Virus record (IMG/VR): IMGVR_UViG_3300037112_000094
Coordinates: 1 to 64,000 of that record
Origin: an uncultured virus (IMG/VR IMGVR_UViG_3300037112_000094)
Taxonomy: Duplodnaviria > Heunggongvirae > Uroviricota > Caudoviricetes
DNA length: 64,000 nucleotides
Reading direction: 5' to 3' (one strand)
In this document: piece after piece, positions 1,165 to 19,148 of the stretch
Layout: every line of letters begins with the position of its first letter
Numbering within the stretch: position 1 is the first letter of the stretch
Translations under genes and position numbers: made by a program
Notes under the pieces: model-generated
The model's database searches: none
Told to the model about the DNA's origin: nothing
The model's input: only the letters and a program-made list of their open reading frames with translations

Positions 1165-1238
1165 TGGTGTACCTGCACGGATTTGAACCGCGATGACACG
1201 CTAATCGGGCGTGCGTCCTACCGTTGGACGACAGGTAC
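1165..1238 (-). tRNA. tRNA-Ile(GAT), atypical loop CC-GAT-TA
   Basis: cloverleaf; CACGC/GCGTG anticodon stem; TTCAAAT T-loop; encoded CCA. Confidence 0.8.
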
Positions 1239-1242
1239 AAAA

Positions 1243-1317
1243 TGGAGGCCAGAGTCGGAACTGCCCCGACAATTCTTGCTTACCGAGCAAGAGGTTTTCT
1301 CGTTAACCTATCCGGCC
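1243..1317 (-). tRNA. tRNA-Thr(GGT), non-canonical T-loop
   Basis: CTTGC-TCGGTAA-GCAAG; T-loop GGCAGTT; CCA. Confidence 0.8.
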
Positions 1318-1324
1318 CAAAATT

Positions 1325-1398
1325 TGGTGGGGGATGAAGGAGTCGAGCCCTCGTAGCCTGCTTGTAAGACAGGTGTTCTTCCGTTGAACTAATCCCCC
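1325..1398 (-). tRNA. tRNA-Val(TAC)
   Basis: CCTGT-CTTACAA-GCAGG; CCA. Confidence 0.9.
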
Positions 1399-1399
1399 A

Positions 1400-1474
1400 T
1401 GGTGCAAGCGCGCAGATTTGAACTGCGAATTGAGGTTCCGGAGACCTCTGTGATTTCCGTTTCACCACGCCTGC
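1400..1474 (-). tRNA. tRNA-Arg(CCG)
   Basis: GAGGT-CTCCGGA-ACCTC; CCA. Confidence 0.9.
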
Positions 1475-1481
1475 AAAACTT

Positions 1482-1557
1482 TGGTCAACCCGCTGGAACT
1501 CGAATCCAGAACTGAAACTTAGGAGGTTTCCGTGATCTCCATTTTCACCACGAGTTG
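1482..1557 (-). tRNA. tRNA-Arg(CCT)
   Basis: GAAAC-CTCCTAA-GTTTC; CCA. Confidence 0.9.
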
Positions 1558-1558
1558 A

Positions 1559-1633
1559 TGGAGAGCCCACTGAGAGTTCAACTCAGATTCTCGGTTTAGA
1601 AGACCGGCGTCTTATGCGTTAGACGATAGGCTC
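1559..1633 (-). tRNA. tRNA-Arg(TCT)
   Basis: CCGGT-CTTCTAA-ACCGA; CCA. Confidence 0.85.
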
Positions 1634-1634
1634 A

Positions 1635-1709
1635 TGGTGGGATGCCGGGGTAACCATCCCCGTTCTTCCGGTTAAAAGCCGGTTGCTTCAGCATTAAAGC
1701 TTGCATCCC
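1635..1709 (-). tRNA. tRNA-Lys(TTT), non-canonical T-loop
   Basis: CCGG-CTTTTAA-CCGG; T-loop ATGGTTA; CCA. Confidence 0.8.
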
Positions 1710-1715
1710 GTAACT

Positions 1716-1792
1716 TGGTCCCGACGAGAGGCCACGATCCTCCAACCTTCCGGTTAAGAGCCGGTTGCTCTGCCCATTTGAGCTACGTCGGG
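1716..1792 (-). tRNA. tRNA-Lys(CTT)
   Basis: CCGG-CTCTTAA-CCGG; T-loop ATCGTGG; CCA. Confidence 0.85.
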
Positions 1793-1793
1793 A

Positions 1794-1887
1794 TGGTAGG
1801 GGATCACGGAGTTGAACCGTGCCGTTGCGCTAATCTGGCGCTCTCCAGAGTTTATAAGGCTCCGCCGCACAGCCGATGCTATCCCCC
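1794..1887 (-). tRNA. tRNA with TAT anticodon (Ile, reads ATA); long variable arm, short D arm
   Basis: GGAGC-CTTATAA-ACTCT; variable arm GCGC-CAGATTA-GCGC; TTCAACT T-loop; CCA. Confidence 0.75.
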
Positions 1888-1896
1888 AACAACACT

Positions 1897-1970
1897 TGGT
1901 GCCGCGCGAGGGAAGCGAACCCTTACTCCGAACGCCTTATGAGAGCGTCGTCCCATCTCGGGTACGCGGC
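1897..1970 (-). tRNA. tRNA with CAT anticodon (Met or Ile2); reduced D arm
   Basis: ACGCT-CTCATAA-GGCGT; D arm CCC-GAGAT-GGG; CCA. Confidence 0.75.
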
Positions 1971-1975
1971 AAATA

Positions 1976-2051
1976 TGGCGGGGGCGGCAGGACTCGAACC
2001 TGCGAGTTCGGGTTTGGAATCCGACAGTTTAGCCGCTAAGCTTACGCCCCC
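1976..2051 (-). tRNA. tRNA-Trp(CCA)
   Basis: TCGGA-TTCCAAA-CCCGA; GCCA end. Confidence 0.9.
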
Positions 2052-2060
2052 GTATTGTCA

Positions 2061-2092
2061 AACAACAAAAACCCCCGGCCTGAGCCGAGGGT
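2061..2092 (-). terminator. attenuator terminator upstream of tRNA operon 1
   Basis: ACCCTCGGC-TCAG-GCCGGGGGT then TTTTGTTGTTT, just before tRNA-Trp. Confidence 0.85.
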
Positions 2093-2117
2093 CTGTGGAC
2101 TCGAATCTGATTGCAGA

Positions 2118-2207
2118 TTAGTCGTCCCAACCCTCGCGCACAACTCCCCAAATGACCCGCTTGGTCCCGGTCATGGAGGTTCTCACGGATTTGGACCTTA
2201 TCTGCAC
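2118..2207 (-). CDS. leader peptide 1, MQIRSKSVRTSMTGTKRVIWGVVREGWDD
   Basis: GTG 7 nt after the -10 box; has a codon for all 11 downstream tRNAs; 3' end overlaps the antiterminator arm. Confidence 0.85.
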   Translation of the reverse strand: MQIRSKSVRTSMTGTKRVIWGVVREGWDD

Positions 2208-2214
2208 GAAATTC

Positions 2215-2243
2215 AGCCTACACCTGTTTCGGATTCTTTGCAA
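2215..2243 (-). promoter_or_regulatory. sigma70-type promoter of tRNA operon 1
   Basis: TTGCAA-N17-TAGGCT. Confidence 0.75.
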
Positions 2244-2347
2244 GTAAAAAATTACCTGAGTTCAGCGAAAAGCCCCGTGCTTCAGCTCGGGGATGGATAG
2301 CTGGTCGTCAAGAGTTCAGCCCCTTTAGGGGTTGATACGAAAGGCGG

Positions 2348-2767
2348 CTACGCGGATTCTGGAGTGTTCTGTTGCTCTATGTATTGCTTGATGATACCTA
2401 ACGGTGCTCCTCCGCATGATGCAGCAAAGTAGCTTGGAGACCAGAGGACGCCTTTCCAATAGCGCTTCTGGATATCGGGACGTTCGAGTCTGAGCAGGCG
2501 ACTGGAGACGCCTTTGAGACTGTTGACCATAGCAGATACAGAGTGCTTTGGTGGGTAGTTGACCAAAAGATGAACGTGATCTTGCTCCCCGTCCATCTCG
2601 ACTAGATCGGCTTCAAAGTCTGTGGCAACGTTCTTGAATATAGTTCGCAAACTGTCAATGGCACTTTTGTCAAAGACTTTGCGCCTGTACTTGGTCACAA
2701 AGACCAAATGAACATGAATCTGGAAAACACAGTGTCTGCCGTGTCGGATTTCGCTTGCATCACTCAT
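2348..2767 (-). CDS. tnpA: Y1 HUH transposase TnpA
   Basis: HLVFVTKYRR, DHVHLL (HUH), LWSPSYFAAS, YIEQQ. Confidence 0.95.
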   Translation of the reverse strand: MSDASEIRHGRHCVFQIHVHLVFVTKYRRKVFDKSAIDSLRTIFKNVATDFEADLVEMDGEQDHVHLLVNYPPKHSVSAMVNSLKGVSSRLLRLERPDIQKRYWKGVLWSPSYFAASCGGAPLGIIKQYIEQQNTPESA

Positions 2768-2792
2768 AGACCAAGTGTATAGTGGAGACATC

Positions 2793-3917
2793 ATGTCAGT
2801 CAAGACTCACAAATATCGGCTAGTTCCCAACAAGGCACAGCGTGTGGCGCTGGACCAGACCTTGTTTCTGTGCCGATCTTTATACAACGATGCCCTGCAA
2901 GAGCGCATCGGGGCCTATAAACTCCACCAACGTGTTGGCAGATTCGATCAGGATAAGCAGTTGCCTGCAATCAAGGAAGCCGTCCCCGAGTACAAAACAG
3001 TCCATTCCCAGGTGCTACAGAACGTTCTAAAGAAGCTCGACGTTGCCTATCAGAACTTCTTTCGTCGCTGCAAACTTGGCGGTGCTCCTGGATTCCCTCG
3101 GTTCAAAGGCAGGGATCGTTTCAACTCCTTCGCGTTCAATAATACGGGCTGGTCTCTCCAGGGAAATCAACTATCGCTCTCCAAGATCGGGAACGTCAAG
3201 GTGCGGTTGTCTCGTCCGCTCCCGAATGATGCTGTGCTCAAGCTGTGTACAATCAAACGCGAAGCAGATGGATGGTACGCGACGATCACATTTGAGTTCG
3301 AGCCCGTGCCGTTGCCGTCCACTGGATTGCCGGTAGGCATAGACGTAGGCATCGCGTCGTTCGCCACATTCTCTGATGGTACGGCGATTCCAAACCCTCG
3401 AATCTACCAGAACGCTCAAGCAGAACTCCGCAGAGCACAGCGGAAAGTTGCTCGGCGCAAGAAGGGATCTAATCGTAGGCGCAAGGCAGTTATCCTGCTA
3501 AAGAAAGTCCACCAACGTGTTGCCAACAAGCGCGCGAACTTCCTCCATAAACTATCGACAGCAGTGATTCAGAAGTACGATGCTATCGCGGTAGAAGATT
3601 TAAACGTCTCTGGCATGTCCAAGGGCAACCTTGCCAAACATGTTCTAGACGTGAGTTGGGCAGAATGGTTTAGGCAACTATCCTACAAGGCAGAATGGGC
3701 CGGTAGGATGTTCGTTGCCGTAGACCCAAAGTACACATCCCAGACCTGTGCCAAGTGCGATCATGTATCCAAAGACAACAGGAAGACTCAGGAGCTATTC
3801 CTCTGCGTCTCCTGTGGACACACGGACCACGCGGACAGGAACGGGGCAGTAAACATATTAGCTCGGGCAGAGCTATCAGACGCTAACGTAAGCGGAGTAA
3901 CGCTATGCGTAGTCTGA
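2793..3917 (+). CDS. tnpB: RNA-guided endonuclease TnpB
   Basis: GIDVG (RuvC-I), VEDL (RuvC-II), TSQTCAKC..CVSCG zinc finger, ADRNGAVNI (RuvC-III). Confidence 0.95.
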   Translation: MSVKTHKYRLVPNKAQRVALDQTLFLCRSLYNDALQERIGAYKLHQRVGRFDQDKQLPAIKEAVPEYKTVHSQVLQNVLKKLDVAYQNFFRRCKLGGAPGFPRFKGRDRFNSFAFNNTGWSLQGNQLSLSKIGNVKVRLSRPLPNDAVLKLCTIKREADGWYATITFEFEPVPLPSTGLPVGIDVGIASFATFSDGTAIPNPRIYQNAQAELRRAQRKVARRKKGSNRRRKAVILLKKVHQRVANKRANFLHKLSTAVIQKYDAIAVEDLNVSGMSKGNLAKHVLDVSWAEWFRQLSYKAEWAGRMFVAVDPKYTSQTCAKCDHVSKDNRKTQELFLCVSCGHTDHADRNGAVNILARAELSDANVSGVTLCVV

Positions 3918-3984
3918 GCAGGCTGTTTTAGCCAATGGAGCCCGCGAGGGCTCTAGAATCTCCGTCCTTTAGGTCGGAGAGTCG

Positions 3985-4494
3985 TCAAGAGTCTGACTTT
4001 TGGGTTGCGGGGGCGGCGCGGCAGAAGAACGGCATGACGTAGAAGCCGTAACCTCCAGAGAACTTGATCCGCTTCTCGTTGAACAACTCGATGAATCGCG
4101 TCCTCTGCTCGTCGCTCAAATGCGGGAAATAAAATTTCGTCTCTGACGTTTCACGCGTCACCCAGTGAGTACACGCATCGGGACCGCCATCGCAACTGCT
4201 CACGAAGTATTCGTTGCCTCCGAATCCAGTCATCTTCTTGTCTTTCGGGCAATCCCGGAAGCTCTGCTTGAACGGAGCGCCACCGTTGTTCTCGACGTAG
4301 ACTTTGTAGTTTTTGTCCGTCGATCCCAACAGCACATCCCCAGCCTCAAGCCGCGCGATCAGGGTATCAGGATTGAGCGAGCCGCAGTACTGGCAAGTGT
4401 CATCCGAGGGGTCGTAGTCATTGTCGCGGGCGAACACTGGAGACGTTCCGATGTGACTCTCAGATCGGCGCGGACACTGGAAATTGTCGCTCAT
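3985..4494 (-). CDS. hypothetical protein with Cys motifs
   Basis: GGAGGAG SD before MSDNFQC; stop codon supplied by the IS end. Confidence 0.7.
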   Translation of the reverse strand: MSDNFQCPRRSESHIGTSPVFARDNDYDPSDDTCQYCGSLNPDTLIARLEAGDVLLGSTDKNYKVYVENNGGAPFKQSFRDCPKDKKMTGFGGNEYFVSSCDGGPDACTHWVTRETSETKFYFPHLSDEQRTRFIELFNEKRIKFSGGYGFYVMPFFCRAAPATQKSDS

Positions 4495-4688
4495 GGTGGC
4501 TCCTCCCGAATCAGGGTCGCACGGTGCAGAGTTAGAGCGCAAGTGCAAAAATTGGAAATTCTTGTCAAGTATTTTATTTTCACATCGTACTGTCAGTTAC
4601 TTACGAACGCTAGAAGTGGTGAATCGCCTGTATTCATGCATGTTTGAGAATGGTCAATGAGAAAATAGATATAGGAGGAAAGAAAAAC

Positions 4689-5045
4689 ATGGATGACCAA
4701 ATCAGCAAGTACGACAGGATTCGCGGCGGTCTACACGACGTGGCGATGTTCACCAAACCATCCACCATCAAAAATGTGCAATCGATCACCGGCAAGTCAG
4801 AAACCTACATTGTCGAGACGTGCCGCCACGAAGATCAGGGCGATCACATCTTCATCGAGGTCGCGGACGAGAATGGGCTCGTTCGCGTATGCCTCCCTCC
4901 GAAGGTTGCATCGCTGATCGCCTCACAGCGTGATGCGCTCACAGCCCGGAGACGCTCCAAGGCGTCGAAGCGCGTAGCTCAGGAGCGCAAGGATCGCGGC
5001 GAGCTTCCCGGATTCATGCGCGCGAAGAAGGGAGGGCGCAAGTGA
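4689..5045 (+). CDS. hypothetical protein
   Basis: AGGAGG SD; overlaps the next gene (GTGA). Confidence 0.7.
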   Translation: MDDQISKYDRIRGGLHDVAMFTKPSTIKNVQSITGKSETYIVETCRHEDQGDHIFIEVADENGLVRVCLPPKVASLIASQRDALTARRRSKASKRVAQERKDRGELPGFMRAKKGGRK

Positions 5046-5482
5046 AGTACGTCTACGATGATGGTGGGCGTGCGGCGGCAGGCTTCAAGGGTGACGCAGG
5101 CGACTGCGTTGCCCGAGCCGTTGCCATCGCGAGCGGCAAGCCATACGCCAAGGTCTACGCGGCCTTGGCTGAGGGGATGGGGAGCCAGAGGATAACCAAG
5201 CGCTCGAAGAAGCGGAGCGCCAGCGCACGCAACGGGGTCAGCGTGAAGCGGCTATGGTTCCTCGACTACATGCATGACCTCGGCTTCGAGTGGACGGCCA
5301 CGATGCTCATCGGCCAAGGATGCAAGGTGCATCTCAGGGACGGCGAGCTACCAATGGGGCGGCTGGTCGTCTCGGTCAGCAAGCACTGGACCGCAGTGAT
5401 CGACGGCGTCAACCGCGACACCTACGATCCGTCCCGCGATGGGACGCGGTGCGTGTACGGCTACTGGCAGAAAAAAAGGTAG
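5042..5482 (+). CDS. phage hypothetical protein
   Basis: DDGGR...GDCVARA...H..AVIDG...DTYD..RCVYGYW; coupled to the upstream gene. Confidence 0.7.
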   Translation: MKYVYDDGGRAAAGFKGDAGDCVARAVAIASGKPYAKVYAALAEGMGSQRITKRSKKRSASARNGVSVKRLWFLDYMHDLGFEWTATMLIGQGCKVHLRDGELPMGRLVVSVSKHWTAVIDGVNRDTYDPSRDGTRCVYGYWQKKR

Positions 5483-5484
5483 AC

Positions 5485-5513
5485 AAAAAAAGGGCACGGC
5501 TCGCACCGTGCCC
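5485..5513 (-). terminator. intrinsic terminator of the Ro-like operon
   Basis: GGGCACGG-TGCGAG-CCGTGCCC-TTTTTTT. Confidence 0.85.
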
Positions 5514-5541
5514 ACTGCCAAGTGTGGCAACCAAGAAAATG

Positions 5542-5841
5542 TTACGCGCCGACAGGCTCGCCAAGTGCGGCCAGTTCCTTGTCGATGGAATCGCGCTTCT
5601 CCTGCGCAGTCTTGAGACTGTCGCGCTGCGACTTCAACTCACGGATACGCGTTGCACGGCGGTCGGCCATGCGCGAGTCGATCTCGCGAGCGAGGGTGTT
5701 CAGGTTGTCCGAAACGTACTCGGGTACCGCAACCTTCTGGGCCTCGAACTCACCGCGAAGCTGCTTGCCAAACGCCGACAACGCAACAAGCTCGTCGATG
5801 GATGCAGCGTCCACATTGAAGTTCTTGAATTCCTGAAGCAT
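5542..5841 (-). CDS. small coiled-coil protein
   Basis: AGGAGG SD before MLQEFK; alternative start 5919. Confidence 0.7.
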   Translation of the reverse strand: MLQEFKNFNVDAASIDELVALSAFGKQLRGEFEAQKVAVPEYVSDNLNTLAREIDSRMADRRATRIRELKSQRDSLKTAQEKRDSIDKELAALGEPVGA

Positions 5842-5918
5842 AGGCTTCCTCCTTTCCGTCTTCTCCATACCGGGGTTGACAAAGATGTTCTTCCTCTTCA
5901 TTGGAATCTTCTTCGGCA

Positions 5919-7427
5919 TTACGCACCAACCAGTTCACCGATCTTGAGCACGTCGCTGAGCGACAAGAGCGGAGTTGTCAGAATCTCGTCCACCAAACTA
6001 TAGCGATTCGAACGCATTGACTGAACGAGGTTCGGCAGGGAATAGTAATCGATCTGGCTTCCACGAAGGTCAAACATCTGCGACTCGATCCCTGCGTTGT
6101 TCAGGTAGCCGCTGAACGTGTTGTTGTCGCCGCTCGTGCTGTAGAAGTAGACCGGCACTTCCTTGCCCACGAACTCCGAATACTTCTTGTAGACGTTGTG
6201 GAAGAACGGAGCCGTGTTCTCGCCGCCGTCTGAAACAACGGCGATGCCGTCGACCTCGATCTTCTCCTCCAGCATCCGGTTCAAACCGCATCCGATGGAA
6301 GTGCCTCCGTCTGCGCGAATGTGCCGCGTTGCCTTCTGGATTTGATCGAGCGAAAGCCCGGTCACGTCCACCGTCATCGGGACAACGTCGAAGAACACCA
6401 GCCACACCTTGCCCTTGACGAACTGAGCAAGCTGTGCCGAAACCTGCCGTGCGACCTCGATGGCCACCCTCATGCTTCCGCTCTTGTCGGCAAGCACAAG
6501 CCAGTTGCCCTCCGGTCCGCCAGCCGCAGCGATCTGCTGCTTCTGGAGCCCACGGAGCTTCTCCTTCAGCCCCTCGTCCTCGACGGCGTCGACGGCCTGA
6601 GTCGTCTTCAGCGTGTTCTTCTTCGACTTCGCAGCCTTCTCCATCGCCTTCTCGAACGCACCGCGAAGCGCTGGGTTGTTCTTCATGCCCAGCTTCTCCA
6701 GCATCTTCACGTTCGTCGTCAACTCGGTCGGCGACATGCGTTCGATCAGAGCAAGAACAAGATCAGTGTCCTTGGCCTTCTCCCCGAGCGCGCCCATGGC
6801 GATAAGGAACGGAATCCTGAACCTCAAGATCGCGCCAGCCGCCTCAACAGGAGACATGCTCTTCAGGTTGGCCACGGCCTCAAAGATCGATCCCTTTGGC
6901 AACGCCAGCTTGGTCACGACCATCGAGCCGTTGATGCTCTCCTTCCACTGGCCGGAGATCACAGCCGCGACGTGGCGGTTGCCCGGACCGGTGCGAGAAA
7001 GAGCGTAGAGCGCCTTGAGCACCTTGCGGTGCTGGATGGCAAGGTGATCCCAGCCCTTCTCCCCTTCCTTCTGGCGGAGGTAGGCGCGGATCATCCGATC
7101 CATCCGCGACATCTTTCCCTTCGGGCGCATCTCGCGCACGAAGTCGAACGCCTTGCGCATCTCACGCGGGCCGAGCAGCGCGAGGTGCGCGATGCTGTTG
7201 TCGAGAAGCTCAAAATCGCTTTCGTATGCCAGACCAAGAACCGGCAGCGCGATCTTCGCATCGCGAACCTGTGAATTCTTAAACGTCCATGCCACGAGAT
7301 GCTGATAGAACTCGCCTTCCTGCTCGATGGCTTGCTTGCCGATGGGGATGTAGTCGCTCAGCTTCCCGTGAGGGCTGCGTGCCAATTCGGCATAAATTCT
7401 TTGCTTCGTTAAACCAGATTCTGTCAT
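5919..7427 (-). CDS. Ro60/TROVE-like RNA-binding protein with C-terminal vWA domain
   Basis: helical N-terminal region; MIDAS DKSGS...GGTS...VSDGGEN; lies downstream of Y-RNA-like modules. Confidence 0.65.
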   Translation of the reverse strand: MTESGLTKQRIYAELARSPHGKLSDYIPIGKQAIEQEGEFYQHLVAWTFKNSQVRDAKIALPVLGLAYESDFELLDNSIAHLALLGPREMRKAFDFVREMRPKGKMSRMDRMIRAYLRQKEGEKGWDHLAIQHRKVLKALYALSRTGPGNRHVAAVISGQWKESINGSMVVTKLALPKGSIFEAVANLKSMSPVEAAGAILRFRIPFLIAMGALGEKAKDTDLVLALIERMSPTELTTNVKMLEKLGMKNNPALRGAFEKAMEKAAKSKKNTLKTTQAVDAVEDEGLKEKLRGLQKQQIAAAGGPEGNWLVLADKSGSMRVAIEVARQVSAQLAQFVKGKVWLVFFDVVPMTVDVTGLSLDQIQKATRHIRADGGTSIGCGLNRMLEEKIEVDGIAVVSDGGENTAPFFHNVYKKYSEFVGKEVPVYFYSTSGDNNTFSGYLNNAGIESQMFDLRGSQIDYYSLPNLVQSMRSNRYSLVDEILTTPLLSLSDVLKIGELVGA

Positions 7428-7440
7428 TTTCCTATTTCTC

Positions 7441-7992
7441 CTATTCCACATGCTGCCATGATTCACGATCAACCACGCGACGTATTGTTGCCGGGTCAAC
7501 CTCAAATATCCGAGCTAACTTCATGAACGAAAAATTGCACTGTTCGGCGAGGCTACGAATTGCTTGTACACGCTCCTCAGTTAAAACCGATAGTGCATGT
7601 CGCTCACCTTTTCCGGCCCTCTGGCGTCCGCGTTGAATCATATCGCGGATATTATCAAGTTGAGTCCCAACAATTAGATGGTCTGGGTTAACACAGCATC
7701 GTACATCGCACTTATGCCTCACAACCTGACCAAATTCGAGTGGCCCATGCTTTTTGACGTACATGAAACGGTGGACACGAATTACTATTCTTCCGCCATC
7801 CTGTAACGTCGCTCCGATATGTGCATAGCCCTTATCGTCCGATGAGCCGATCCAAAGCCAACAACCACTCATTGGCTCGTGGCTGATATTTTTCTCAATG
7901 CGGCCATAAAGAGATTGCCCAGAAGTTCTTCCAAGATAACTTACATAGTCGGCCATGCTCAGCTTTGTCACCGCATCGTTCATGCGACTCAT
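7441..7992 (-). CDS. HNH endonuclease with C-terminal HTH
   Basis: CWLWIG...RVHR...VRHKCDVRCCVNPDHL..GTQLDN. Confidence 0.85.
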   Translation of the reverse strand: MSRMNDAVTKLSMADYVSYLGRTSGQSLYGRIEKNISHEPMSGCWLWIGSSDDKGYAHIGATLQDGGRIVIRVHRFMYVKKHGPLEFGQVVRHKCDVRCCVNPDHLIVGTQLDNIRDMIQRGRQRAGKGERHALSVLTEERVQAIRSLAEQCNFSFMKLARIFEVDPATIRRVVDRESWQHVE

Positions 7993-8549
7993 GGAAGTTT
8001 TCTCTCTTTCAAATACTCGACATAGAAATCATAGTCAAGACCCTTGAGAGCGCACCAGTCACGCGGGTCCATGGCACCTTTATCCTTATTGCAGCGGCGG
8101 CACGCTGAAAGGTATCCAGACGGATCATTGACACCACCCTGCTCTAAAGGCCAGAAGTGGTCCACTGTGAGTTGCACCCGGCCCATAGGCTGCTTACAAT
8201 AAAGACACTTGCAGCCGTCAGCGACCCACACCTTCTGCTGGACGGTGCCAGAGATGTCGTAGCGGAGCTTGCGGTGGAACGCCTTCTCAAGCGATCCGTT
8301 CACCAGTATCTCGGGGTTGTCCGATCTCTGGAGCCAGTCAGACCACTGCTCGGCGGTCAGGGTTTTAACGTCAGCGCCATCCGGCCATTCTCCATCTCCC
8401 CACAGCACATAGCCGGGGAGCATGAAGATCGCCTGCGCACCTTCGCCGCCGACCACGATACCTTCGATTTTGAGGAGGGAGCCTACGTCGCCCATGAGAG
8501 CAGGGCGATGACGCAACTCAAGCTGATAGAAACGGTCGCCACTTGCCAT
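7989..8549 (-). CDS. HNH nuclease domain protein
   Basis: CLYC...LTVDHFWP..GG...SACRRCNKDK; GGGAGG SD before MASGDR. Confidence 0.8.
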   Translation of the reverse strand: MASGDRFYQLELRHRPALMGDVGSLLKIEGIVVGGEGAQAIFMLPGYVLWGDGEWPDGADVKTLTAEQWSDWLQRSDNPEILVNGSLEKAFHRKLRYDISGTVQQKVWVADGCKCLYCKQPMGRVQLTVDHFWPLEQGGVNDPSGYLSACRRCNKDKGAMDPRDWCALKGLDYDFYVEYLKERKLP

Positions 8550-8574
8550 GGTTCCCCTCCCGGAAGGAACTTTT

Positions 8575-8709
8575 GGGTTGTAGTCGATATGGTTTAGATT
8601 TTGCGGAGCCTTGCGGCTCGCGCCCCCCATATTGATGAAGCCGAATAAGGTGGTGGAGGGGGCCGGAGTTTCCCCCGGAACAAAGTCATGTATCCACTTC
8701 AGTCAACCC
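8575..8709 (-). ncRNA. Y-RNA-like module 7 (T arm, closed acceptor, D-like hairpin)
   Basis: GGGTTGACTG..GGATACATG ... CGACTACAACCC closing stem; internal CCCCCTCCACCA and GGGGGGC. Confidence 0.65.
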
Positions 8710-8714
8710 AAACT

Positions 8715-8824
8715 TGGCTGGGGGACTCGGTTACGAGCCGAGATTGGCTTGCGCCAAAAAGACATGTATCCGAATCAGTCAGCAGTATCGCTGTAGTCGT
8801 TCCGGAACCTCTTAGGTCCCCCAG
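8715..8824 (-). ncRNA. Y-RNA-like module 6 (tRNA-like ends, conserved stem inserted internally)
   Basis: CTGGGGGA/TCCCCCAG-CCA; internal CGACTACAGC-loop-GCTGACTG..TACATG. Confidence 0.65.
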
Positions 8825-8834
8825 TAAAACTTGA

Positions 8835-8961
8835 TGGTGGCGGGTGAAGGATTCGAACCTCCATACTGTTGTAACCAAATACAACCGTCTTTTCCATGTA
8901 TCCGACTCAGTCAGCGTCGCCGCTGTAGTCGACCCGGAAGTTAGCTTTTGACTAACCCGCC
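8835..8961 (-). ncRNA. Y-RNA-like module 5 (tRNA body, TGG loop, conserved stem inserted)
   Basis: GGCGGGT/ACCCGCC-ACCA; GGAGG-TTCGAAT-CCTTC; internal conserved stem. Confidence 0.7.
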
Positions 8962-8970
8962 ACAACTTAT

Positions 8971-9093
8971 TGGCCTGTAGTCGAAGTGCTACCCCTTGCG
9001 GGGTGGTACAGGTTGGATTTGAACCAACTACCGTCTGATTAAGAGTCAGATGCTCGACCAATTGAGCTTCATGTAAGCACTTCTGTCAGGCCA
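8971..9093 (-). ncRNA. Y-RNA-like module 4 enclosing Lys(CTT)-like D, anticodon and T arms
   Basis: TGGCCTGACAG..TACATG ... CGACTACAGGCCA; TCTGA-CTCTTAA-TCAGA; GTTGG-TTCAAAT-CCAAC. Confidence 0.7.
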
Positions 9094-9105
9094 AATTCAA
9101 AATCA

Positions 9106-9244
9106 TTGTGCTGTAGTCGATCTGCTATTTTACGCGCTCTACCGCTGAGCTAATCCCCCGTCAATTCTTTGATGGTGGAGGATGAAGGATTCGAACCTCC
9201 GACCTCGGTCTCCAAAGGACATGTAAGCAAGTCAGTCAGCACAA
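9106..9244 (-). ncRNA. Y-RNA-like module 3 (circularly permuted tRNA, YrlA-like order)
   Basis: conserved stem, T arm, ATCCTCCACCA, linker, GGGGGAT, D arm GCTCAGCGGTAGAGC, conserved stem. Confidence 0.75.
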
Positions 9245-9250
9245 ACTTTA

Positions 9251-9314
9251 TGGCTTGTAGTCGATCTGCATGGTGTTCCTGCTCTCAAAGCATGTATGCA
9301 AATCAGTCAAGCCA
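9251..9314 (-). ncRNA. Y-RNA-like module 2 (minimal)
   Basis: GGCTTGACTGATTTGCATACATG ... TGCAGATCGACTACAAGCC. Confidence 0.65.
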
Positions 9315-9325
9315 ATTTTTTTCTC

Positions 9326-9435
9326 CGCTGTAGTCGTCAGGCAACCCTTTCGGGACATCCGGGAATCGCACCCGGTTCGTTTCATCTCAATTGAAATGCC
9401 TCGCTTTGAGGCGCATGTAAGCCAAACAGTCAGCG
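9326..9435 (-). ncRNA. Y-RNA-like module 1
   Basis: CGCTGACTG..GCTTACATG ... CGACTACAGCG; T-arm-like CCGGG-TGCGATT-CCCGG. Confidence 0.65.
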
Positions 9436-9466
9436 AAAACTCAATCTCAAAAACGCAACGTCTCTA

Positions 9467-9495
9467 ACCTTACAACGGTTCCAAAAACGCGTCAA
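9467..9495 (-). promoter_or_regulatory. promoter of the Y-like RNA / HNH / Ro-like operon
   Basis: TTGACG-N17-TAAGGT. Confidence 0.7.
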
Positions 9496-9514
9496 GCAAA
9501 TTCTGCGCTTTTTA

Positions 9515-9591
9515 TGGAGGGCCTAGAGGGATTCGAACCCCCGTATAACAGATTCGTAGTCTGCCGCGTCATCCAACTACGCTATAGGCCC
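9515..9591 (-). tRNA. tRNA-Arg(ACG)
   Basis: GCAGA-CTACGAA-TCTGT; CCA. Confidence 0.9.
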
Positions 9592-9601
9592 TCATTCAAA
9601 A

Positions 9602-9678
9602 TGGTACGGGTGGAGGGATTTGAACCCCCGATCCCCTGCTCCCAAAGCAGGTGCGTTTCCAGACTTCGCTACACCCGT
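9602..9678 (-). tRNA. tRNA-Pro(TGG)
   Basis: CCTGC-TTTGGGA-GCAGG; CCA. Confidence 0.9.
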
Positions 9679-9691
9679 GTGACTTCCAAAA

Positions 9692-9768
9692 TGGTCGGGG
9701 AGATGGGATTCGAACCCATGACCTTCGGTACCCGAGACCGAAGCGCTACCTGACCGCGCCCCTCCCCG
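9692..9768 (-). tRNA. tRNA-Pro(CGG)
   Basis: TCGGT-CTCGGGT-ACCGA; CCA. Confidence 0.9.
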
Positions 9769-9769
9769 A

Positions 9770-9845
9770 TGGTGTCGACTCCCGGTGCTGCCCCGAGTTC
9801 TTCCGCTCTTCAGGCGGACGCTATGACTGCACTAGCTCAATCGAC
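9770..9845 (-). tRNA. tRNA-Phe(GAA), non-canonical T-loop
   Basis: TCCGC-CTGAAGA-GCGGA; T-loop GGCAGCA; CCA. Confidence 0.8.
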
Positions 9846-10080
9846 AAAACTCTTGCCAAACATCCTGCCGAAAGTTGCTCGGCCTGCGAATCATCTTCTT
9901 CGCGCGATATGCCTGCATCAGCTTCCGAGCGCGTCCACACCTCATGAGCATCCGCTGGAAAGGACTCTCAGCAAAGAAACAATCCGCGATCTTGCTTGCG
10001 AACTGCTTTCTCCTACGCAAATCTCCCTCATGTCTTCGCTGAGAAAAACCGCGCTCGGATCGCTTTATGAATTGACGCAT
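9832..10080 (-). CDS. small Arg-rich protein; stop lies inside tRNA-Phe
   Basis: AGGAG SD; 82 codons. Confidence 0.55.
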   Translation of the reverse strand: MRQFIKRSERGFSQRRHEGDLRRRKQFASKIADCFFAESPFQRMLMRCGRARKLMQAYRAKKMIRRPSNFRQDVWQEFCRLS

Positions 10081-10175
10081 ATTTCTCCTAAAAACTTAGC
10101 GGGCCTCTACCTTGCGACGTGCGACCCGTGACGCCTTCACCCTTACGTCGTTACAGGTGAGGCACCAGTCAAACT

Positions 10176-10251
10176 TGGTGGACCTAGTCGGCTCCGCCCC
10201 GACCGCCTCCGCATTGCAAGTGCGGCGCTCTCCTAAATGAGCTATAGGCCC
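10176..10251 (-). tRNA. tRNA-Ala(TGC), non-canonical T-loop
   Basis: CCGCA-CTTGCAA-TGCGG; G3:U70; T-loop GGCGGAG. Confidence 0.85.
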
Positions 10252-10260
10252 GTAAAACTT

Positions 10261-10339
10261 TGGGGCGGCGTATCGGATTCGAACCGATGTAATACGTGTG
10301 CCACAGACACGCGCAATAGACCGCTCTGCCAACACCGCC
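10261..10339 (-). tRNA. tRNA-His(GTG)
   Basis: CGTGT-CTGTGGC-ACACG; G-1:C73. Confidence 0.9.
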
Positions 10340-10422
10340 ATGAATCGCGCTACCGGGACACGTTATAGCTTGGTAGCACCCTCCCGCCCGTAAGCGGGAG
10401 ATTCCGCGTGTCCCAGTGAGCT

Positions 10423-10498
10423 TGGGGCCGAAGGGGATACTCGAAATCCCATCAGCGGTTCACAAAACCGCCGCTACTTCCTCTTGAGCTACTTCGGC
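10423..10498 (-). tRNA. tRNA-Thr(TGT)
   Basis: GCGGT-TTTGTGA-ACCGC; CCA. Confidence 0.85.
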
Positions 10499-11185
10499 AA
10501 ACTCTCTCGTCTTTCTTATCTTTCTTCTTCTTTCGCTCGCCTTCCTTTTGTTTCGATTACGAAACGTTGGAGTCAAAGCGTGGCAATTAGGACAGAGAAG
10601 TTGCAGGTTCTCATCTTTGTTATTCTCTGAATCCCCGTCCACATGGTGAAGTTCAAGCGGGATGGCTTTTCCCATCCACTGATCTAAACCGCATCCTTCG
10701 CATCTGTGTCCTCTTCTCCGAAGCACCAGACGCTTGACAGCCTTTGAATCGCTTACATCTTCAGTAGACTGAGCCATCTTGTAGATTTGGCTTTTGTTGC
10801 AGTCGTCGCAATACTTGTTCTGACCAGAACATGTGGAACCGCAGTACGCGCAAGCCTTTTCCCAATTCTCTCTTCTTTTTCGTCTGGCGATCTTCGCGCA
10901 TCTCACCGAGCACGATTTTGCTTTCAGATTCTTAACGAGAACAGGACCGCCGCAAATTACGCATCGACGCTCTTCTCTCTTACGTTGTATCTGATCCGAT
11001 TTGATTTTTGCTTTAGCATGAGCTTTCGCCAGCGCAACCACAGCATTCGCCCTGCTAATAGTCTTACGTTCCTCAACAGAAAGCAGCGGTACGTCAGGAA
11101 TTCGCGACTTCAACACCTTCTTGGATTTCCTGTTCCTGTAGTACCACCGCCTCCGAGCAGCTTTTCGCCTTTCTTCGTTTTTCAT
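10460..11185 (-). CDS. HNH endonuclease; stop lies in the anticodon loop of tRNA-Thr(TGT)
   Basis: CEGCG...LELHHVDGD..NN...LLCPNCH; TATACT 6 nt before ATG. Confidence 0.85.
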   Translation of the reverse strand: MKNEERRKAARRRWYYRNRKSKKVLKSRIPDVPLLSVEERKTISRANAVVALAKAHAKAKIKSDQIQRKREERRCVICGGPVLVKNLKAKSCSVRCAKIARRKRRENWEKACAYCGSTCSGQNKYCDDCNKSQIYKMAQSTEDVSDSKAVKRLVLRRRGHRCEGCGLDQWMGKAIPLELHHVDGDSENNKDENLQLLCPNCHALTPTFRNRNKRKASERRRKIRKTREFAEVAQEEVAAVL

Positions 11186-11229
11186 CTCCCGAGTATAGCA
11201 AAATTTGGAGACGATAACGAACATTTATG

Positions 11230-11952
11230 TTAGTTAACAAACTGGTATCTTGTGTCACCCGTGTTAAGCAAAGCACAAGTCGCAAGTCTCTTGGCTATGG
11301 ACTCCGGAGTTTTCCTCTTTCCACGCATACTCGCGGAAATCTTCGCCTTGTGCTCATCCGACATCGGCCTGCGTTTCCGGTAGCCGACTTTTACCCCCTT
11401 GTGCGACGCTGACATCTTCGCTCTCGATTCCTCTGCAACAGGGTGTCCTTTCAAGGTGGCCGAGATTCTGGCCCTCAACTCTGGCGAGCGCGTTACCGGT
11501 CCTCTATTTCTAGCAGCCTCGGCCATTCTCGCTCTTCCTTCTTCCGATACTTTGTGCCCCTTGGCATAAGAGTTTCCCTTATGGACATCTGAAAGTGTCG
11601 AGCTTCCCTTTTCTGTAAGAATCCTGATTCCGTCTCTGTTGAATCCGCTGTACCCTCCTGCCGTCCTGTTATAGCCGCGACCGCTTGTGATGTAGGTTTT
11701 GTAGAATTTGATGAAGTGCTTTTCGAGATCGTCGAGCAAAAGTGGATCACACGAGGCGACTTCGATAACTGTGAAGTTTTCAACTCCCCACTTTCTCATC
11801 GCCCTATGTATGGGCAGATTGCTTCCGCGCTTGACCTCGTATTTGTGCTGGTTGAACCTTATCCACACAGTTTGTTTCGTGGTCTGGCCGACGTACCCCT
11901 TGCCGTTCGCGAGATTACGAATTAAGTAAATTTTGCCGACGAGTTTGCGCAT
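11230..11952 (-). CDS. GIY-YIG homing endonuclease with NUMOD3-like repeats
   Basis: KIYLIRN..NGKGYVGQT...GYN; repeated SEExRAxMS. Confidence 0.9.
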   Translation of the reverse strand: MRKLVGKIYLIRNLANGKGYVGQTTKQTVWIRFNQHKYEVKRGSNLPIHRAMRKWGVENFTVIEVASCDPLLLDDLEKHFIKFYKTYITSGRGYNRTAGGYSGFNRDGIRILTEKGSSTLSDVHKGNSYAKGHKVSEEGRARMAEAARNRGPVTRSPELRARISATLKGHPVAEESRAKMSASHKGVKVGYRKRRPMSDEHKAKISASMRGKRKTPESIAKRLATCALLNTGDTRYQFVN

Positions 11953-11955
11953 CTT

Positions 11956-12501
11956 TTACCTAAATTGTAACCTCGTTTCGCCTTCGGAATCAGAAAAAAG
12001 GAACTTTCCCCATTCCTCAACTTCTCTGCCAAGCTGTTTCAAAATGAAGCGGCTTGTAAAGATATTCGCGGGCAGCGGCCTATGGATCAACTTCATTCCA
12101 GCCTCTTCCGGCGTCCGGTTGTTCTTACGTCTATTGCACGGGGAACAGGCAGCAACAAGGTTGTCCCATGACTGCTTACCACCTCTGCTTCTCGGGATCA
12201 CGTGCTCCAGTTCAAGCTCTGCCCCGTTGTTCTTCTTCGCGCCGCAGTACATGCACCTGAAACCGTCGCGAATGAAAATGTTCTTCCTCGAAACCTGCTG
12301 CATCCGGTGCGGGACGTTCCTGTAGTGCCGCAAACGGATGACGGAAGGAAGGTAGATTCCCTTGTGGACTTGGATGCTGGTTGGCACCTCCACCACGGCA
12401 ACGCCCTTGGTTATGAGCGTGAGCGCCTTTCGCGCGCTGACGATTCTCAGCGGCTCATACGACGCGTTAAGTTGTAGTACCGCTCTCCGTATGAGTGCCA
12501 T
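11956..12501 (-). CDS. HNH endonuclease (McrA-like)
   Basis: VLQLNASYEPL...RDGFRCMYCG...EHVIPRSRGG..WDNLVAACSPCNRRK. Confidence 0.9.
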   Translation of the reverse strand: MALIRRAVLQLNASYEPLRIVSARKALTLITKGVAVVEVPTSIQVHKGIYLPSVIRLRHYRNVPHRMQQVSRKNIFIRDGFRCMYCGAKKNNGAELELEHVIPRSRGGKQSWDNLVAACSPCNRRKNNRTPEEAGMKLIHRPLPANIFTSRFILKQLGREVEEWGKFLFSDSEGETRLQFR

Positions 12502-12516
12502 GGAATCCCCTTTCTT

Positions 12517-12672
12517 CTACCTCTCGTCAATCTGTGGAGCACCGTCCCGGAATCGAACCGGGGCTTCGACGTTACGAGGGTCGTGTTGTGCCGACTCAAC
12601 TAACGGTGCTCGAAATCCTTTCGCCAACCGTGCGAAAACATGCTGCATGTCGGCGTTCAAATCGATCTTCAT
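12517..12672 (-). CDS. small ORF reading through tRNA-Thr(CGT)
   Basis: GGAGG SD then MKIDLNADMQH...; no stop before the tRNA. Confidence 0.4.
   Translation of the reverse strand: MKIDLNADMQHVFARLAKGFRAPLVESAQHDPRNVEAPVRFRDGAPQIDER
12535..12609 (-). tRNA. tRNA-Thr(CGT)
   Basis: CGACC-CTCGTAA-CGTCG; CCA. Confidence 0.85.
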
Positions 12673-12688
12673 TCTTCTTCCTCCAAAG

Positions 12689-12762
12689 TGGAGCGGGGTA
12701 TCGGGTTCGAACCGATGCGCAAAGTGTGGCACACTTCGATGCTACCGCTACATCAACCCCGC
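12689..12762 (-). tRNA. tRNA-Gly(GCC)
   Basis: GAAGT-GTGCCAC-ACTTT; GCG acceptor, U73. Confidence 0.85.
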
Positions 12763-12763
12763 G

Positions 12764-12837
12764 TGGCACCCGGTGGGAGAATCGAACTCCCGTGTTGGGT
12801 TCCAAAGGCCCACGTCCTGCCACTGAACGAACCGGGA
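12764..12837 (-). tRNA. tRNA-Gln(TTG)
   Basis: TGGGC-CTTTGGA-ACCCA; GCCA end. Confidence 0.85.
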
Positions 12838-12849
12838 ACAACTCAAACT

Positions 12850-12925
12850 TGGCTGGCTCTCCGGGACTCGAACCCAGATCATTCGCTCCAGAGGCGAAGG
12901 TCCTCAACCATTGAACGAAGAGCCA
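12850..12925 (-). tRNA. tRNA-Gln(CTG)
   Basis: TTCGC-CTCTGGA-GCGAA; U1-A72. Confidence 0.9.
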
Positions 12926-12935
12926 ACTTCTAAAC

Positions 12936-13010
12936 TGGCTCAAGGGGTGGGAGTCGGACCCACAACGACACGGTTAACAGCCGTGGGCTCTACCATTGAG
13001 CTACCCTTGA
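12936..13010 (-). tRNA. tRNA-Asn(GTT)
   Basis: CACGG-CTGTTAA-CCGTG; U1-A72, G73. Confidence 0.9.
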
Positions 13011-13020
13011 ACATCCCCAC

Positions 13021-13059
13021 AAACGAGAACCCCCAGTTCCTTTCGGTTCTGGGGGTCTC
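13021..13059 (-). terminator. attenuator terminator upstream of tRNA operon 2
   Basis: GAGACCCCCAGAACC-GAAA-GGAACTGGGGGTTCTC-GTTT; U-tract is weak. Confidence 0.75.
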
Positions 13060-13101
13060 AAGTTTTTCCATCTGTGTTAGGAAAAAATCTGTCTGAGACC
13101 C

Positions 13102-13173
13102 CTAGTCCGCACCGCCGCTATTACCGGCTGGTTGCGTCGGCTGTGTCGCTGCGTTATGGAATCGGGTTCTCAC
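13102..13173 (-). CDS. leader peptide 2, MRTRFHNAATQPTQPAGNSGGAD
   Basis: GTG 7 nt after the -10 box; has a codon for all 12 downstream tRNAs. Confidence 0.88.
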   Translation of the reverse strand: MRTRFHNAATQPTQPAGNSGGAD

Positions 13174-13180
13174 GTTTTCC

Positions 13181-13209
13181 ACGATATAATCAATCAGGAA
13201 AACTGTCAA
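13181..13209 (-). promoter_or_regulatory. promoter of tRNA operon 2
   Basis: TTGACA-N17-TATCGT. Confidence 0.8.
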
Positions 13210-13225
13210 GAGGTTTTTGAAAAAA

Positions 13226-13930
13226 ATGGCCCGCGTTCACCTACTCGTCAAAGCAGCGGTTGAGCGTGGAAGCATTACAATCGCGCTCTTATGCGAAGAA
13301 TGTGGGGCACAGCGACGGCTTGTCGCCCACCACGACGATTATGCAAGACCACTAGATGTGCGTTGGCTTTGCTTATTTTGTCACAGCAAGTGGCACGTTG
13401 ATAATGGGCCGGGATTAAACAGAGAGTTGGCAGGATTCTACGATCTTGGGGCCTCCATACCACCCAAACCTGCCGATCCGCGCAGAGAGGAAATGAAAGT
13501 CCTCCGTAGGGATGGTTGGACACTGCAAAAAATTGGGAATAAATACGGTTTTACAAGAGAATATGTGCGCCAGATTGTCGGTTCATCTTCCGCTCGTCAA
13601 TCTAATTCAGAGAAGATTCGAGCCAACATCCTTGAAATAGAATCGCTGCGAAATGACGGGAAAACGGTGAGGCAAATAGCCGGATTGCTTGGCTTCTCTT
13701 GTGATGCTCTCTCGCGGGCATCCTTGCCTCCACGAGTAAAACCAAAGCCAATACATGGTGTCACCACGACCTATACCTATCACAGATGTAGATGCGATCT
13801 CTGTCGCGAAGCTAACGCCAAACGAACAAGCGAGCGAACTCGCGCCATTCGGATGAAAGGGCTGTGTGTCGCCTGCAAAAGCCCATCAACCACATGGCAT
13901 TGCGATGAATGTAATCTAAAGTACCTTTAA
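13226..13930 (+). CDS. zinc-binding / HTH DNA-binding protein with HNH-like N-terminus
   Basis: CEECG..HHDDY..PLDVRWLC..CH; TLQKIGNKYGFTREYVRQI; CRCDLC. Confidence 0.65.
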   Translation: MARVHLLVKAAVERGSITIALLCEECGAQRRLVAHHDDYARPLDVRWLCLFCHSKWHVDNGPGLNRELAGFYDLGASIPPKPADPRREEMKVLRRDGWTLQKIGNKYGFTREYVRQIVGSSSARQSNSEKIRANILEIESLRNDGKTVRQIAGLLGFSCDALSRASLPPRVKPKPIHGVTTTYTYHRCRCDLCREANAKRTSERTRAIRMKGLCVACKSPSTTWHCDECNLKYL

Positions 13931-13946
13931 TCACTTCATCGGTTTA

Positions 13947-14180
13947 TCACTTTTTTGGGATGCGCTTGCGGGCCACGGCCTTCTGCTCGCCGGGGCGCGG
14001 CGGCTGTTGCTTGCCGTAGTAGTACCACGAGGTCGCGAGGGGGGGCTTGCCCCTGCTGGTTTTCATGGTGGAGGATTTTCCGGGAACCGGAAGCTTATTG
14101 ATGAAATCCTCAGCGCCCTGCAACTTGTCAGACCAGCCCTTGACAAGGTCGATGATCGGCTGAAAGGCGGTACTTGCCAT
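13947..14180 (-). CDS. small hypothetical protein, leaderless
   Basis: TTGACT-N17-TACCGT-N6-ATG. Confidence 0.55.
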   Translation of the reverse strand: MASTAFQPIIDLVKGWSDKLQGAEDFINKLPVPGKSSTMKTSRGKPPLATSWYYYGKQQPPRPGEQKAVARKRIPKK

Positions 14181-14276
14181 ACCAGAACGGTAGCGCCTCG
14201 CGGGCCGGTAGTCAATAAATTCTTCATCTGCGGTGTCCTTCTTGACAAATACGCAAATCCGCGTATTCTCGAATTT

Positions 14277-14597
14277 ATGCACACGGTGACGAACATCGAT
14301 GGCCTCCTCGAAATCATGAAGACGCTTCAGGGCGAGAAAAGCCAGAAGGACTTTGCCCAGACATTGGGCGTGTCGCCGTCCTACCTCAATGACGTTTACA
14401 ATCGCCGCCGTGAACCGGGCAGGAGTATCACTGAATCTCTCGGGGTCAGCGCGACTATGACGTACACGGTCCCAGAAAACATTTCAACCACAGCCGCGAC
14501 GATCTCGCGAGGAGAAATCCATGGCCAAGTCCACAAAGAAAACCAAAAAAGAATCAAAGCCAAAGGGCAAAGAAAATCGCGGAAGCGTTCTGATTAA
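14277..14597 (+). CDS. XRE-family HTH regulator, leaderless
   Basis: SQKDFAQTLGVSPSYLNDVYNRRREPG; TTGACA-N16-TATTCT-N7-ATG. Confidence 0.8.
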   Translation: MHTVTNIDGLLEIMKTLQGEKSQKDFAQTLGVSPSYLNDVYNRRREPGRSITESLGVSATMTYTVPENISTTAATISRGEIHGQVHKENQKRIKAKGQRKSRKRSD

Positions 14598-14832
14598 CTT
14601 TGTTCTCGACAAATCTGGCTCAATGGGAAGTTGTGTCGACGACACCATCGGCGGCTTCAACACCTACATCAAGAAGCTCCGGGAAGACAAAAAGTCCACC
14701 TACAAGTTCAGCCTGACGTTGTTCGACACGCGGTTCGAAGAACGGTTCGTCTCGGTTGACCTTAAAGACGTTCCCGACCTCAACACAAAGAACTACGTTC
14801 CGGGCGGCGGAGGATTCACACCTCCTGCATAG
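14521..14832 (+). pseudogene. vWA-domain protein, C-terminally truncated
   Basis: FVLDKSGSM...TIGGFN...LTLFD...YVPGGG then stop; later MIDAS residues missing. Confidence 0.65.
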
Positions 14833-15268: not shown

Positions 15269-15275
15269 ATTCAGC

Positions 15276-18941: not shown

Positions 18942-19018
18942 TGGTGCCCGCAGGGGTACTCGAAACCCCATCCCGACCTTTTTAAGAAGTCGCGCTCTGC
19001 CATTTGGCGTACACGGGC
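18942..19018 (-). tRNA. tRNA-Leu(TAA), short variable loop
   Basis: GACTT-CTTAAAA-AGGTC; A73. Confidence 0.8.
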
Positions 19019-19020
19019 AC

Positions 19021-19050
19021 AAACTAAAAAGCCCCCGATTTCTCGGAGGC
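19021..19050 (-). terminator. attenuator terminator upstream of tRNA operon 3
   Basis: GCCTCCGA-GAAA-TCGGGGGC-TTTTTAGTTT. Confidence 0.85.
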
Positions 19051-19079
19051 CGCTGACTGAATTCCACTTTGGACTCAGT

Positions 19080-19148
19080 TCACGAACCCCCGCCACCGCT
19101 CAGTAATGAGCTATACGAGGAGAGCGAACTGAGGCACACTGTCTTCAT
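19080..19148 (-). CDS. leader peptide 3, MKTVCLSSLSSYSSLLSGGGGS
   Basis: 13 consecutive Cys/Leu/Ser/Tyr codons upstream of a Cys/Leu/Ser/Tyr tRNA operon. Confidence 0.88.
   Translation of the reverse strand: MKTVCLSSLSSYSSLLSGGGGS

Follow-up and report, generated by a model that had tools for sequence, protein, structure and literature searches.

The reason why phages carry near-complete sets of tRNA genes is, to our knowledge, an open question, with compensation for codon usage and replacement of tRNAs destroyed by the host as the competing explanations. The DNA analyzed here (the window) comprises the first 64 kb of one 71.2-kb contig, which the tools used treat as a virus record. It contains 35 tRNA genes called by ARAGORN on the minus strand from 1165 to 19018, with several extra calls under relaxed settings and with HNH and GIY-YIG genes interspersed among them. 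The individual regulation of tRNA genes is described as largely unknown in the available text of PMC8421152. The question raised by the short open reading frame that precedes the first block of these genes is whether it controls their transcription, and what it would respond to. The answer that we hold with good confidence is that it is part of a ribosome-mediated transcription attenuator, which exerts block-specific feedback on tRNA supply.

The reading frame, here called leader 1, runs on the minus strand from GTG 2207 to TAA 2118 and comprises 29 codons plus the stop, with the codons exactly as the first-pass annotation had written them. That annotation had drawn the upper limit of the feature at 2243, where a TTG is found; this triplet coincides with a conserved -35 box and was therefore rejected as the likely start codon. 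The predicted sigma70-type promoter occupies 2215..2243 (minus), with the -35 box TTGCAA at 2243-2238, a spacing of 17 nt and the -10 box TAGGCT at 2220-2215. It was not listed by a generic promoter scan, and its support comes from conservation, given that TTG and TANNNT are kept at matching spacing in the relatives, as seen in an alignment of 17 of 24 leaders that left out the 7 with longer 5' inserts. The GTG begins 7 nt past the -10 box, which makes the leader mRNA probably leaderless, the position of the transcription start being read from this geometry. The start codon lies 6-8 nt past the -10 box, and the mRNA thus looks leaderless, in 14 of the 17 aligned leaders. Between promoter and leader, five relatives (L070 at 2440-2560, L010, L077, L079, and L086) carry a structured insert of about 90 nt with a GGCTAG motif, as well as an SD-like AAGGA; Rfam gave no match over the L070 insert. 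In the window, an IS200/IS605 element (approximately 2270-3990, with tnpA at 2348-2803 and tnpB at 2775-3917) is inserted just upstream of the leader-1 promoter.

Downstream of leader 1 lies tRNA block 1 (1165..2051, minus), with 11 tRNAs in the window: Trp CCA, Met CAT, Ile TAT, Lys CTT, Lys TTT, Arg TCT, Arg CCT, Arg CCG, Val TAC, Thr GGT, and Ile GAT, of which Ile TAT, Lys TTT, and Thr GGT were called only under relaxed ARAGORN settings. A twelfth, Gly(TCC), lies about 85 nt beyond window position 1 on a 121.7-kb IMG/VR contig that is identical to the window in its vWA protein and its block-1 region, and among relatives this tRNA is usually the last of block 1. The proposed match between codons and anticodons is borne out, with all 11 in-window tRNAs covered under standard wobble and 9 of them by exact pairing. 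Among the codons that had been listed as unmatched, CAG and the three TCC are indeed unread by the block, but GGA and GGG are matched because Gly(TCC) belongs to the block, just outside the window. GTC is likewise unread by block 1 under standard wobble. The sensing window of the leader, with limits taken from folding, comprises codons 2-21 (2204-2145, minus) and covers 12 of 12 block anticodons.

The extent of this match was compared with what chance would give. For all 28 internal codons, coverage of 11 out of 11 tRNAs has P = 5e-5 under genome codon usage and P = 6.6e-4 under nucleotide shuffles, while the other two frames of leader 1 cover 3 and 4 tRNAs and the antisense frame covers 1. 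For codons 2-21, full coverage of the 12 anticodons was reached by 0 of 300,000 random codon sets and, with the peptide fixed and the synonyms redrawn, by 1,083 of 100,000 (1.1%). Among the 82,974 stop-free 20-codon windows in the contig, a coverage of 12 is reached only by three overlapping windows of leader 1.

The same arrangement is found twice more in the window. Leader 3, with its antiterminator and terminator (13016..13173, minus; GTG 13173 to TAG 13102), covers 11 of the 11 ARAGORN-called tRNAs of block 3 (13010-9515, minus; Asn/Gln/Gln/Gly/Thr/Thr/His/Ala/(Phe)/Pro/Pro/Arg(ACG)). Leader 5, with the same two elements (19018..19148, minus; ATG 19148 to TGA 19080), covers 10 of the 11 tRNAs of block 5 (19018-17191, minus; Leu x5/Cys/Ser x4/Tyr). 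In a three-by-three test within the window, leaders 1, 3, and 5 cover 11/11, 11/11, and 10/11 of their own blocks and only 1-4 of 11 in the other two leader-bearing blocks. In footprint-masked folding, leaders 3 and 5 are predicted to switch just past their last block codons. From sequence, statistics, and conservation, the three leaders would thus split the elongator tRNAs of the phage into three separately sensed blocks. Near the site where relatives have tRNA-Phe, there is an atypical cloverleaf with a GAA anticodon (9770-9845, minus), missed by ARAGORN and Rfam, which would match the TTC of leader 3. A Met(CAT)/Asp/Glu/Glu block at 16197 (region 16260-15872, minus) has promoter-like sequence directly upstream and neither leader nor terminator.

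Relatives were gathered from loci around the neighboring vWA gene, giving 23 distinct relatives for leader 1, 8 for leader 3, and 7 for leader 5. The type-1 count set comprises 24 leaders including that of the window and, together with 10 held-out leaders, 34. A codon-blind picker supplied the leader for 18 of 25 block-1 targets, and the remaining 7 came from promoter-scored picks; anchor positions were set by hand in L007, L064, and L101, as was the window end for the block-3 leaders of L003, L009, and L086. Before counting, L001 and L002 (identical to the window), L080 (with the same reading frame as L077), and the block-3 pick of L119 (wrong reading frame) were excluded. A block-3 leader was not recovered in L064, L078, L081, and L119. 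Two further pattern scans gave 0 loci and 1 locus, the latter already in the set, and among GenBank phages there was only a single distant vWA match (30%). In the more distant L029, L035, L041, L057, and L098, no leader could be seen up to a distance of 280-330 nt from the arrays, an absence that is no proof, given that the second leader of L044 lies 560 nt upstream. The label of four of the six genome-bin relatives is Acidobacteria, and an acidobacterial host is proposed on this basis as a guess. In L004 (4436-4900; the same phage as L007), tRNA-Trp is apparently interrupted or duplicated by a 127-aa reading frame directly after the terminator, and in L145 (627-1038) there is a tmRNA call inside the tRNA region.

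In the 34 homologous leaders, the frame is open from start to stop in every case, and the order of the codons is shuffled while the set is retained. With a hand-defined block-1 set of 18 codons, 361 of the 453 sensing codons of the 24 type-1 leaders belong to the set versus 45 of 102 codons past the switch, and the sensing codons of types 3 and 5 fall in their own sets in 152 of 176 and 97 of 118 cases, respectively. ATA, AGA, ACC, and AAG are present in 24/24, with ATA at 9 different offsets and AGA at 8. ATA, which makes up 0.66% of long-ORF codons, is found in all 34 leaders at shifting positions. In the held-out leaders, half of which were found via a pattern in the 3' core, ATA, AAA, and ACC occur upstream of that core in 10/10. 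When each locus is compared with its own block, 216 of 235 called tRNAs are covered, and Arg(CCT) accounts for 11 of the 19 misses.

The choice among synonyms follows the block. The ratio of block-1 to block-3 codons is 58:9 in leader 1 and 2:11 in leader 3 for Arg, 83:10 and 8:25 for Thr, and 44:2 and 1:12 for Gly, although the leaders are related and pooled P values on these counts are not independent evidence. Since the synonyms follow the isoacceptors of their own block, the comparison of sequences points to the sensing of tRNA species rather than of amino acids. Rearrangements are followed as well. In L012, block 1 has gained Glu, Glu, and Asp tRNAs, and ahead of the switch its leader carries GAA and two GAT codons. 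In L044, Asn and Arg(ACG) lie within a Lys/Arg/Val/Ile block, whose leader has two AAC, one AAT, and two CGC and lacks TGG and GGA, these two codons being found instead in the leader of the block that now carries Trp and Gly(TCC). In L154, leader and block 1 have been relocated together beside the Leu/Ser block.

At a finer scale the tracking is incomplete. Across 22 loci, AGG is not associated with tRNA-Arg(CCT), being absent in 11 of 16 loci with this tRNA and present in 2 of 6 without it. ACC is retained in L012 and L019 although Thr(GGT) is not called in their block, GAA occurs in the leaders of L019 and L064 without a Glu tRNA in block 1, and CAG, a block-3 codon, is retained in 19 of 24 type-1 leaders. 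The failure of AGG and ACC to follow the loss of their tRNAs would be expected if the leader were a translated attenuator that responds to a general slow-down of elongation, caused by starvation, antibiotics, or a shortage of ribosomes, with a historical or loose codon match in which no single tRNA is decisive. Classical attenuation models require many regulatory codons for sensitivity to partial starvation, as set out in the available text of Elf and Ehrenberg (PMC1183508), and most block codons of the leader are single, so that only weak sensitivity to a partial shortage is expected, which also speaks for a general sensor. Against a sensor of that kind stand three leaders that partition the code in step with three blocks, synonyms split by block, the rare ATA kept in 34/34 leaders while its position shifts, and the two rearrangements (L012 and L044) mirrored in the leaders, and we consider it unlikely.

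How the position of a ribosome on leader 1 could be converted into a transcriptional output was explored by folding. An intrinsic terminator is predicted at 2060..2094 (minus), with a stem at 2094-2069 (-18.4 kcal/mol) followed by a U-rich tail. The first-pass annotation had the leader end pairing with the 5' arm of the terminator, and this agrees with a predicted antiterminator at 2084..2139 (minus; -26.3 kcal/mol), in which 2136-2124 pairs with 2086-2100, overlapping the terminator stem, around an inner 6-bp hairpin at 2119-2104; the reading frame of leader 1 stops within this domain. A further hairpin inside the reading frame (2142..2181, minus; -14.9 kcal/mol) is a candidate RNA polymerase pause hairpin or region 1:2 hairpin.

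The ribosome was represented in folding by a masked footprint of -15/+10, which is an assumed value. Of the two competing structures, the antiterminator wins on nascent RNA, but not clearly at equilibrium on the full transcript. On nascent RNA, the terminator 5' arm is predicted to be sequestered at 0.67-0.74 with the A site at codons 1-20, and the value drops to 0.04 by codon 25. At equilibrium, the full transcript has a terminator probability of about 0.4-0.8 at most stall positions; a clean leader-1 switch was obtained only from nascent-RNA folding and not from the equilibrium fold. Given that the terminator still forms at equilibrium, the switch must be kinetic. That the antiterminator is lost at the stop is a direct consequence of the footprint assumed, and the informative points of the model would be the existence of the helix and the fact that occlusion sets in just where the needed codons end, at approximately codon 21. 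In most of the 24 homologues, which are 21-32 codons long, the predicted switch falls at or beside TGG/GGA, and in the homologous leaders the stop codon always lies at a position from which a ribosome terminating there would occlude the antiterminator strand.

Both helices are co-adapted in the relatives. In the terminator, 92.8% of cells are paired and 6 of 8 pairs show two-sided change, a result reached by 0 of 500 shuffles, in an alignment that was fitted to the terminator structure and includes 3 weak non-orthologous hits. The antiterminator duplex is better than strand shuffles in 23 of 24 leaders, and strands paired with their own arm reach -18.9 kcal/mol versus -14.8 +/- 0.6 kcal/mol when swapped (0 of 20,000 permutations, with L091 left out as its 3' part is that of L070). 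Column covariation of the antiterminator is not significant in the terminator-fitted alignment, where the register differs between subtypes and 51 of 500 shuffles score as high. In 32 of the 34 homologous leaders, folding predicts a hairpin around the AAG codon, which may act in pausing; the elemental-pause motif is present in only 12 of 34. Since the 3' core (AAG CGG GTC ATT TGG GGA) forms this conserved hairpin, the conservation of the core is perhaps partly structural.

In another explanation, the reading frame encodes a functional small peptide, or is not translated at all, and an ordinary leaky terminator fixes the tRNA level. In its favor, the C-terminal half (TKRVIWG-like) is conserved, and the switching is itself a folding prediction. 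Against it stand residues in shuffled order, lengths from 21 to 32 codons, constrained synonymous choice, an antiterminator that co-evolves with the terminator arm, and a stop that is always placed for occlusion of the antiterminator strand by a terminating ribosome, making this explanation improbable.

Triplets that match anticodons next to an antiterminator would also be given by a T-box-like device that works without ribosomes, the leader triplets being paired directly by the anticodons of tRNAs. The triplets lie in one open frame in 34/34 homologues with the other frames mismatched, the GGTTGGGAC stretch is not conserved, and Rfam has no T-box match at gathering score or at E<=2, nor a match of any other known RNA family over the leader, so that neither a Stem I specifier loop nor an antiterminator bulge is recognized; such a device is very improbable. 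A chance match or an inactive relic, which gains something from the leader having been chosen after looking and from about one quarter of genome codons being read by the block, can hardly be upheld against the null models and the replication in two further leaders and 33 relatives.

With these explanations weighed, the reading implied by the first-pass annotation, namely that leader 1 is translated, that its codons sense the tRNAs encoded downstream, and that it switches an antiterminator, came through the computational tests run: codon match against null models, switching in masked folds, shuffled codon order, co-adapted helices, and tracking of rearrangements. From leader 1 it is seen that a leader reading frame between promoter and operon, cognate control codons, a terminator before the first gene, and a mutually exclusive antiterminator are all present as in an attenuator, together with an appropriate placement of the control codons, which depends on the assumed footprint. 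The classical pattern of repeated codons ahead of biosynthetic or synthetase genes is absent.

RNA data for this region come from peat metatranscriptomes, which are the RNA runs that contain the stretch. Contigs over much of tRNA block 1 were found in four RNA-library assemblies, and one contig spans 1796-2178, across the terminator. This is weak evidence, since such contigs carry no information on strand, start, or level and could include DNA, and it is compatible with read-through. No RNA-library contig covers 2215-2719 in the 4 runs, which alone proves nothing.

In the mechanism that we propose for attenuation by leader 1, host RNA polymerase would start at or next to the GTG, with a ribosome following. 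A ribosome that reaches the last codons or the stop is predicted by folding to cover 2136-2124, so that the terminator forms and transcription ends near 2060. A ribosome stalled at any of codons 2-21, where an aminoacyl-tRNA is scarce, cut, or uncharged, would leave 2136-2124 free to pair with the terminator 5' arm, and with the antiterminator formed, the 12 tRNA genes are predicted to be transcribed. Fresh tRNAs would relieve the stall and close a negative feedback loop. The phage would thus probably make the tRNAs of a block only when ribosomes stall for their lack.

The need for many codons in the classical models suggests that a leader with mostly single codons would either detect the severe loss of any single tRNA or sum over the whole block. 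One codon per tRNA would be better suited to the near-total loss of a tRNA, for example when a host anticodon nuclease cleaves it, than to a mild limitation of amino acids. The more specific proposal that the phage audits the host tRNA pool per isoacceptor, with the loss of one tRNA stalling a ribosome at a single codon and inducing only the block of its replacement, is tentative, and we place it somewhat below an even chance. If it is true, the leaders would provide an inducible counter-defence that limits itself, and the tRNA genes would be under closed-loop feedback.

Two further features of the tRNA region were observed in the window. At 15268-14820 (minus), promoter-like sequence is followed by ATG-ACG-TAG and an in-frame reading frame that weakly matches PTH2 (E 0.031, below cut-off), and the ATG-NNN-TAG start is retained in 5 of 5 distinct homologue contexts. 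This sequence suggests amber read-through control of a peptidyl-tRNA-hydrolase-like gene. There are calls of tRNAs with a CTA anticodon in L008 and L145, and an odd tRNA-like 'Thr AGT' (14850-14925) overlaps the 3' end of the PTH2-like reading frame. At 9470-8570 and 5919-7505 (minus), several tRNA-like repeats with a common GACTACA motif lie upstream of a vWA-type gene, which has a weak match to a PHROG 'RNA-binding protein'. One of the repeats has a weak match to YrlA (E 0.023, far below gathering). Repeats and gene are possibly a Ro/Y-RNA-like module.

A sensor composed of the codons that its own tRNA block reads indicates that decoding supply matters to the phage, and the question of the tRNA sets becomes testable with a 150-nt reporter. 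If the proposed mechanism is true, it carries classical attenuation over to tRNA genes and makes it a closed loop, may explain the sorting of phage tRNAs into fixed blocks, and provides a compact sensor of tRNA depletion that can be programmed by codon. The literature searched (CC-licensed PMC articles and bioRxiv) yielded no report of leader-peptide attenuation of tRNA genes.

In T-box riboswitches, the state of a tRNA chooses between antiterminator and terminator through one specifier loop. The phage leader is alike in this tRNA-state-dependent choice and differs in presenting many codons in an open frame. Besides the trp and his attenuators, the multivalent attenuators of thr and ilvGMEDA and that of pheST also operate through leader peptides.

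The trn L-array of Anabaena PCC 7120 is a tRNA array that has spread horizontally and is induced by translational stress, in which it resembles the phage blocks. In the available text of that study (PMC8421152), regulation is proposed to occur by promoter repression at direct repeats, and there is neither a codon-matched leader nor block-specific sensing, the words 'attenuat' and 'leader' being absent from the main text. The mycobacterial polycysteine attenuators are closer in form, given that, in the text available, they are leaderless short ORFs, placed as the first gene, that act as ribosome-stalling sensors, several of them giving operon-level control (bioRxiv 10.1101/834739). They differ in that a poly-Cys tract is used to unmask the ribosome-binding site of protein genes, according to the same source, whereas the phage leader combines mixed codons with an intrinsic terminator that precedes tRNA genes.

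The closest likeness is to the attenuators of amino-acid operons. Like trp and his, as described in the available text of PMC1183508, the phage leader has a short reading frame with control codons and a hairpin inside it, and mutually exclusive antiterminator and terminator structures for which the ribosome position would set the output. In contrast to trp, his, thr, and ilv, the phage leader would control tRNA genes and not enzymes, and where classical attenuators have runs of codons for 1-3 amino acids, it presents codons that mostly occur once, about 12 in all, which specify 8 amino acids and are chosen by isoacceptor. It also differs in being found in a phage, three times over and often leaderless, with a product that itself decodes the control codons.
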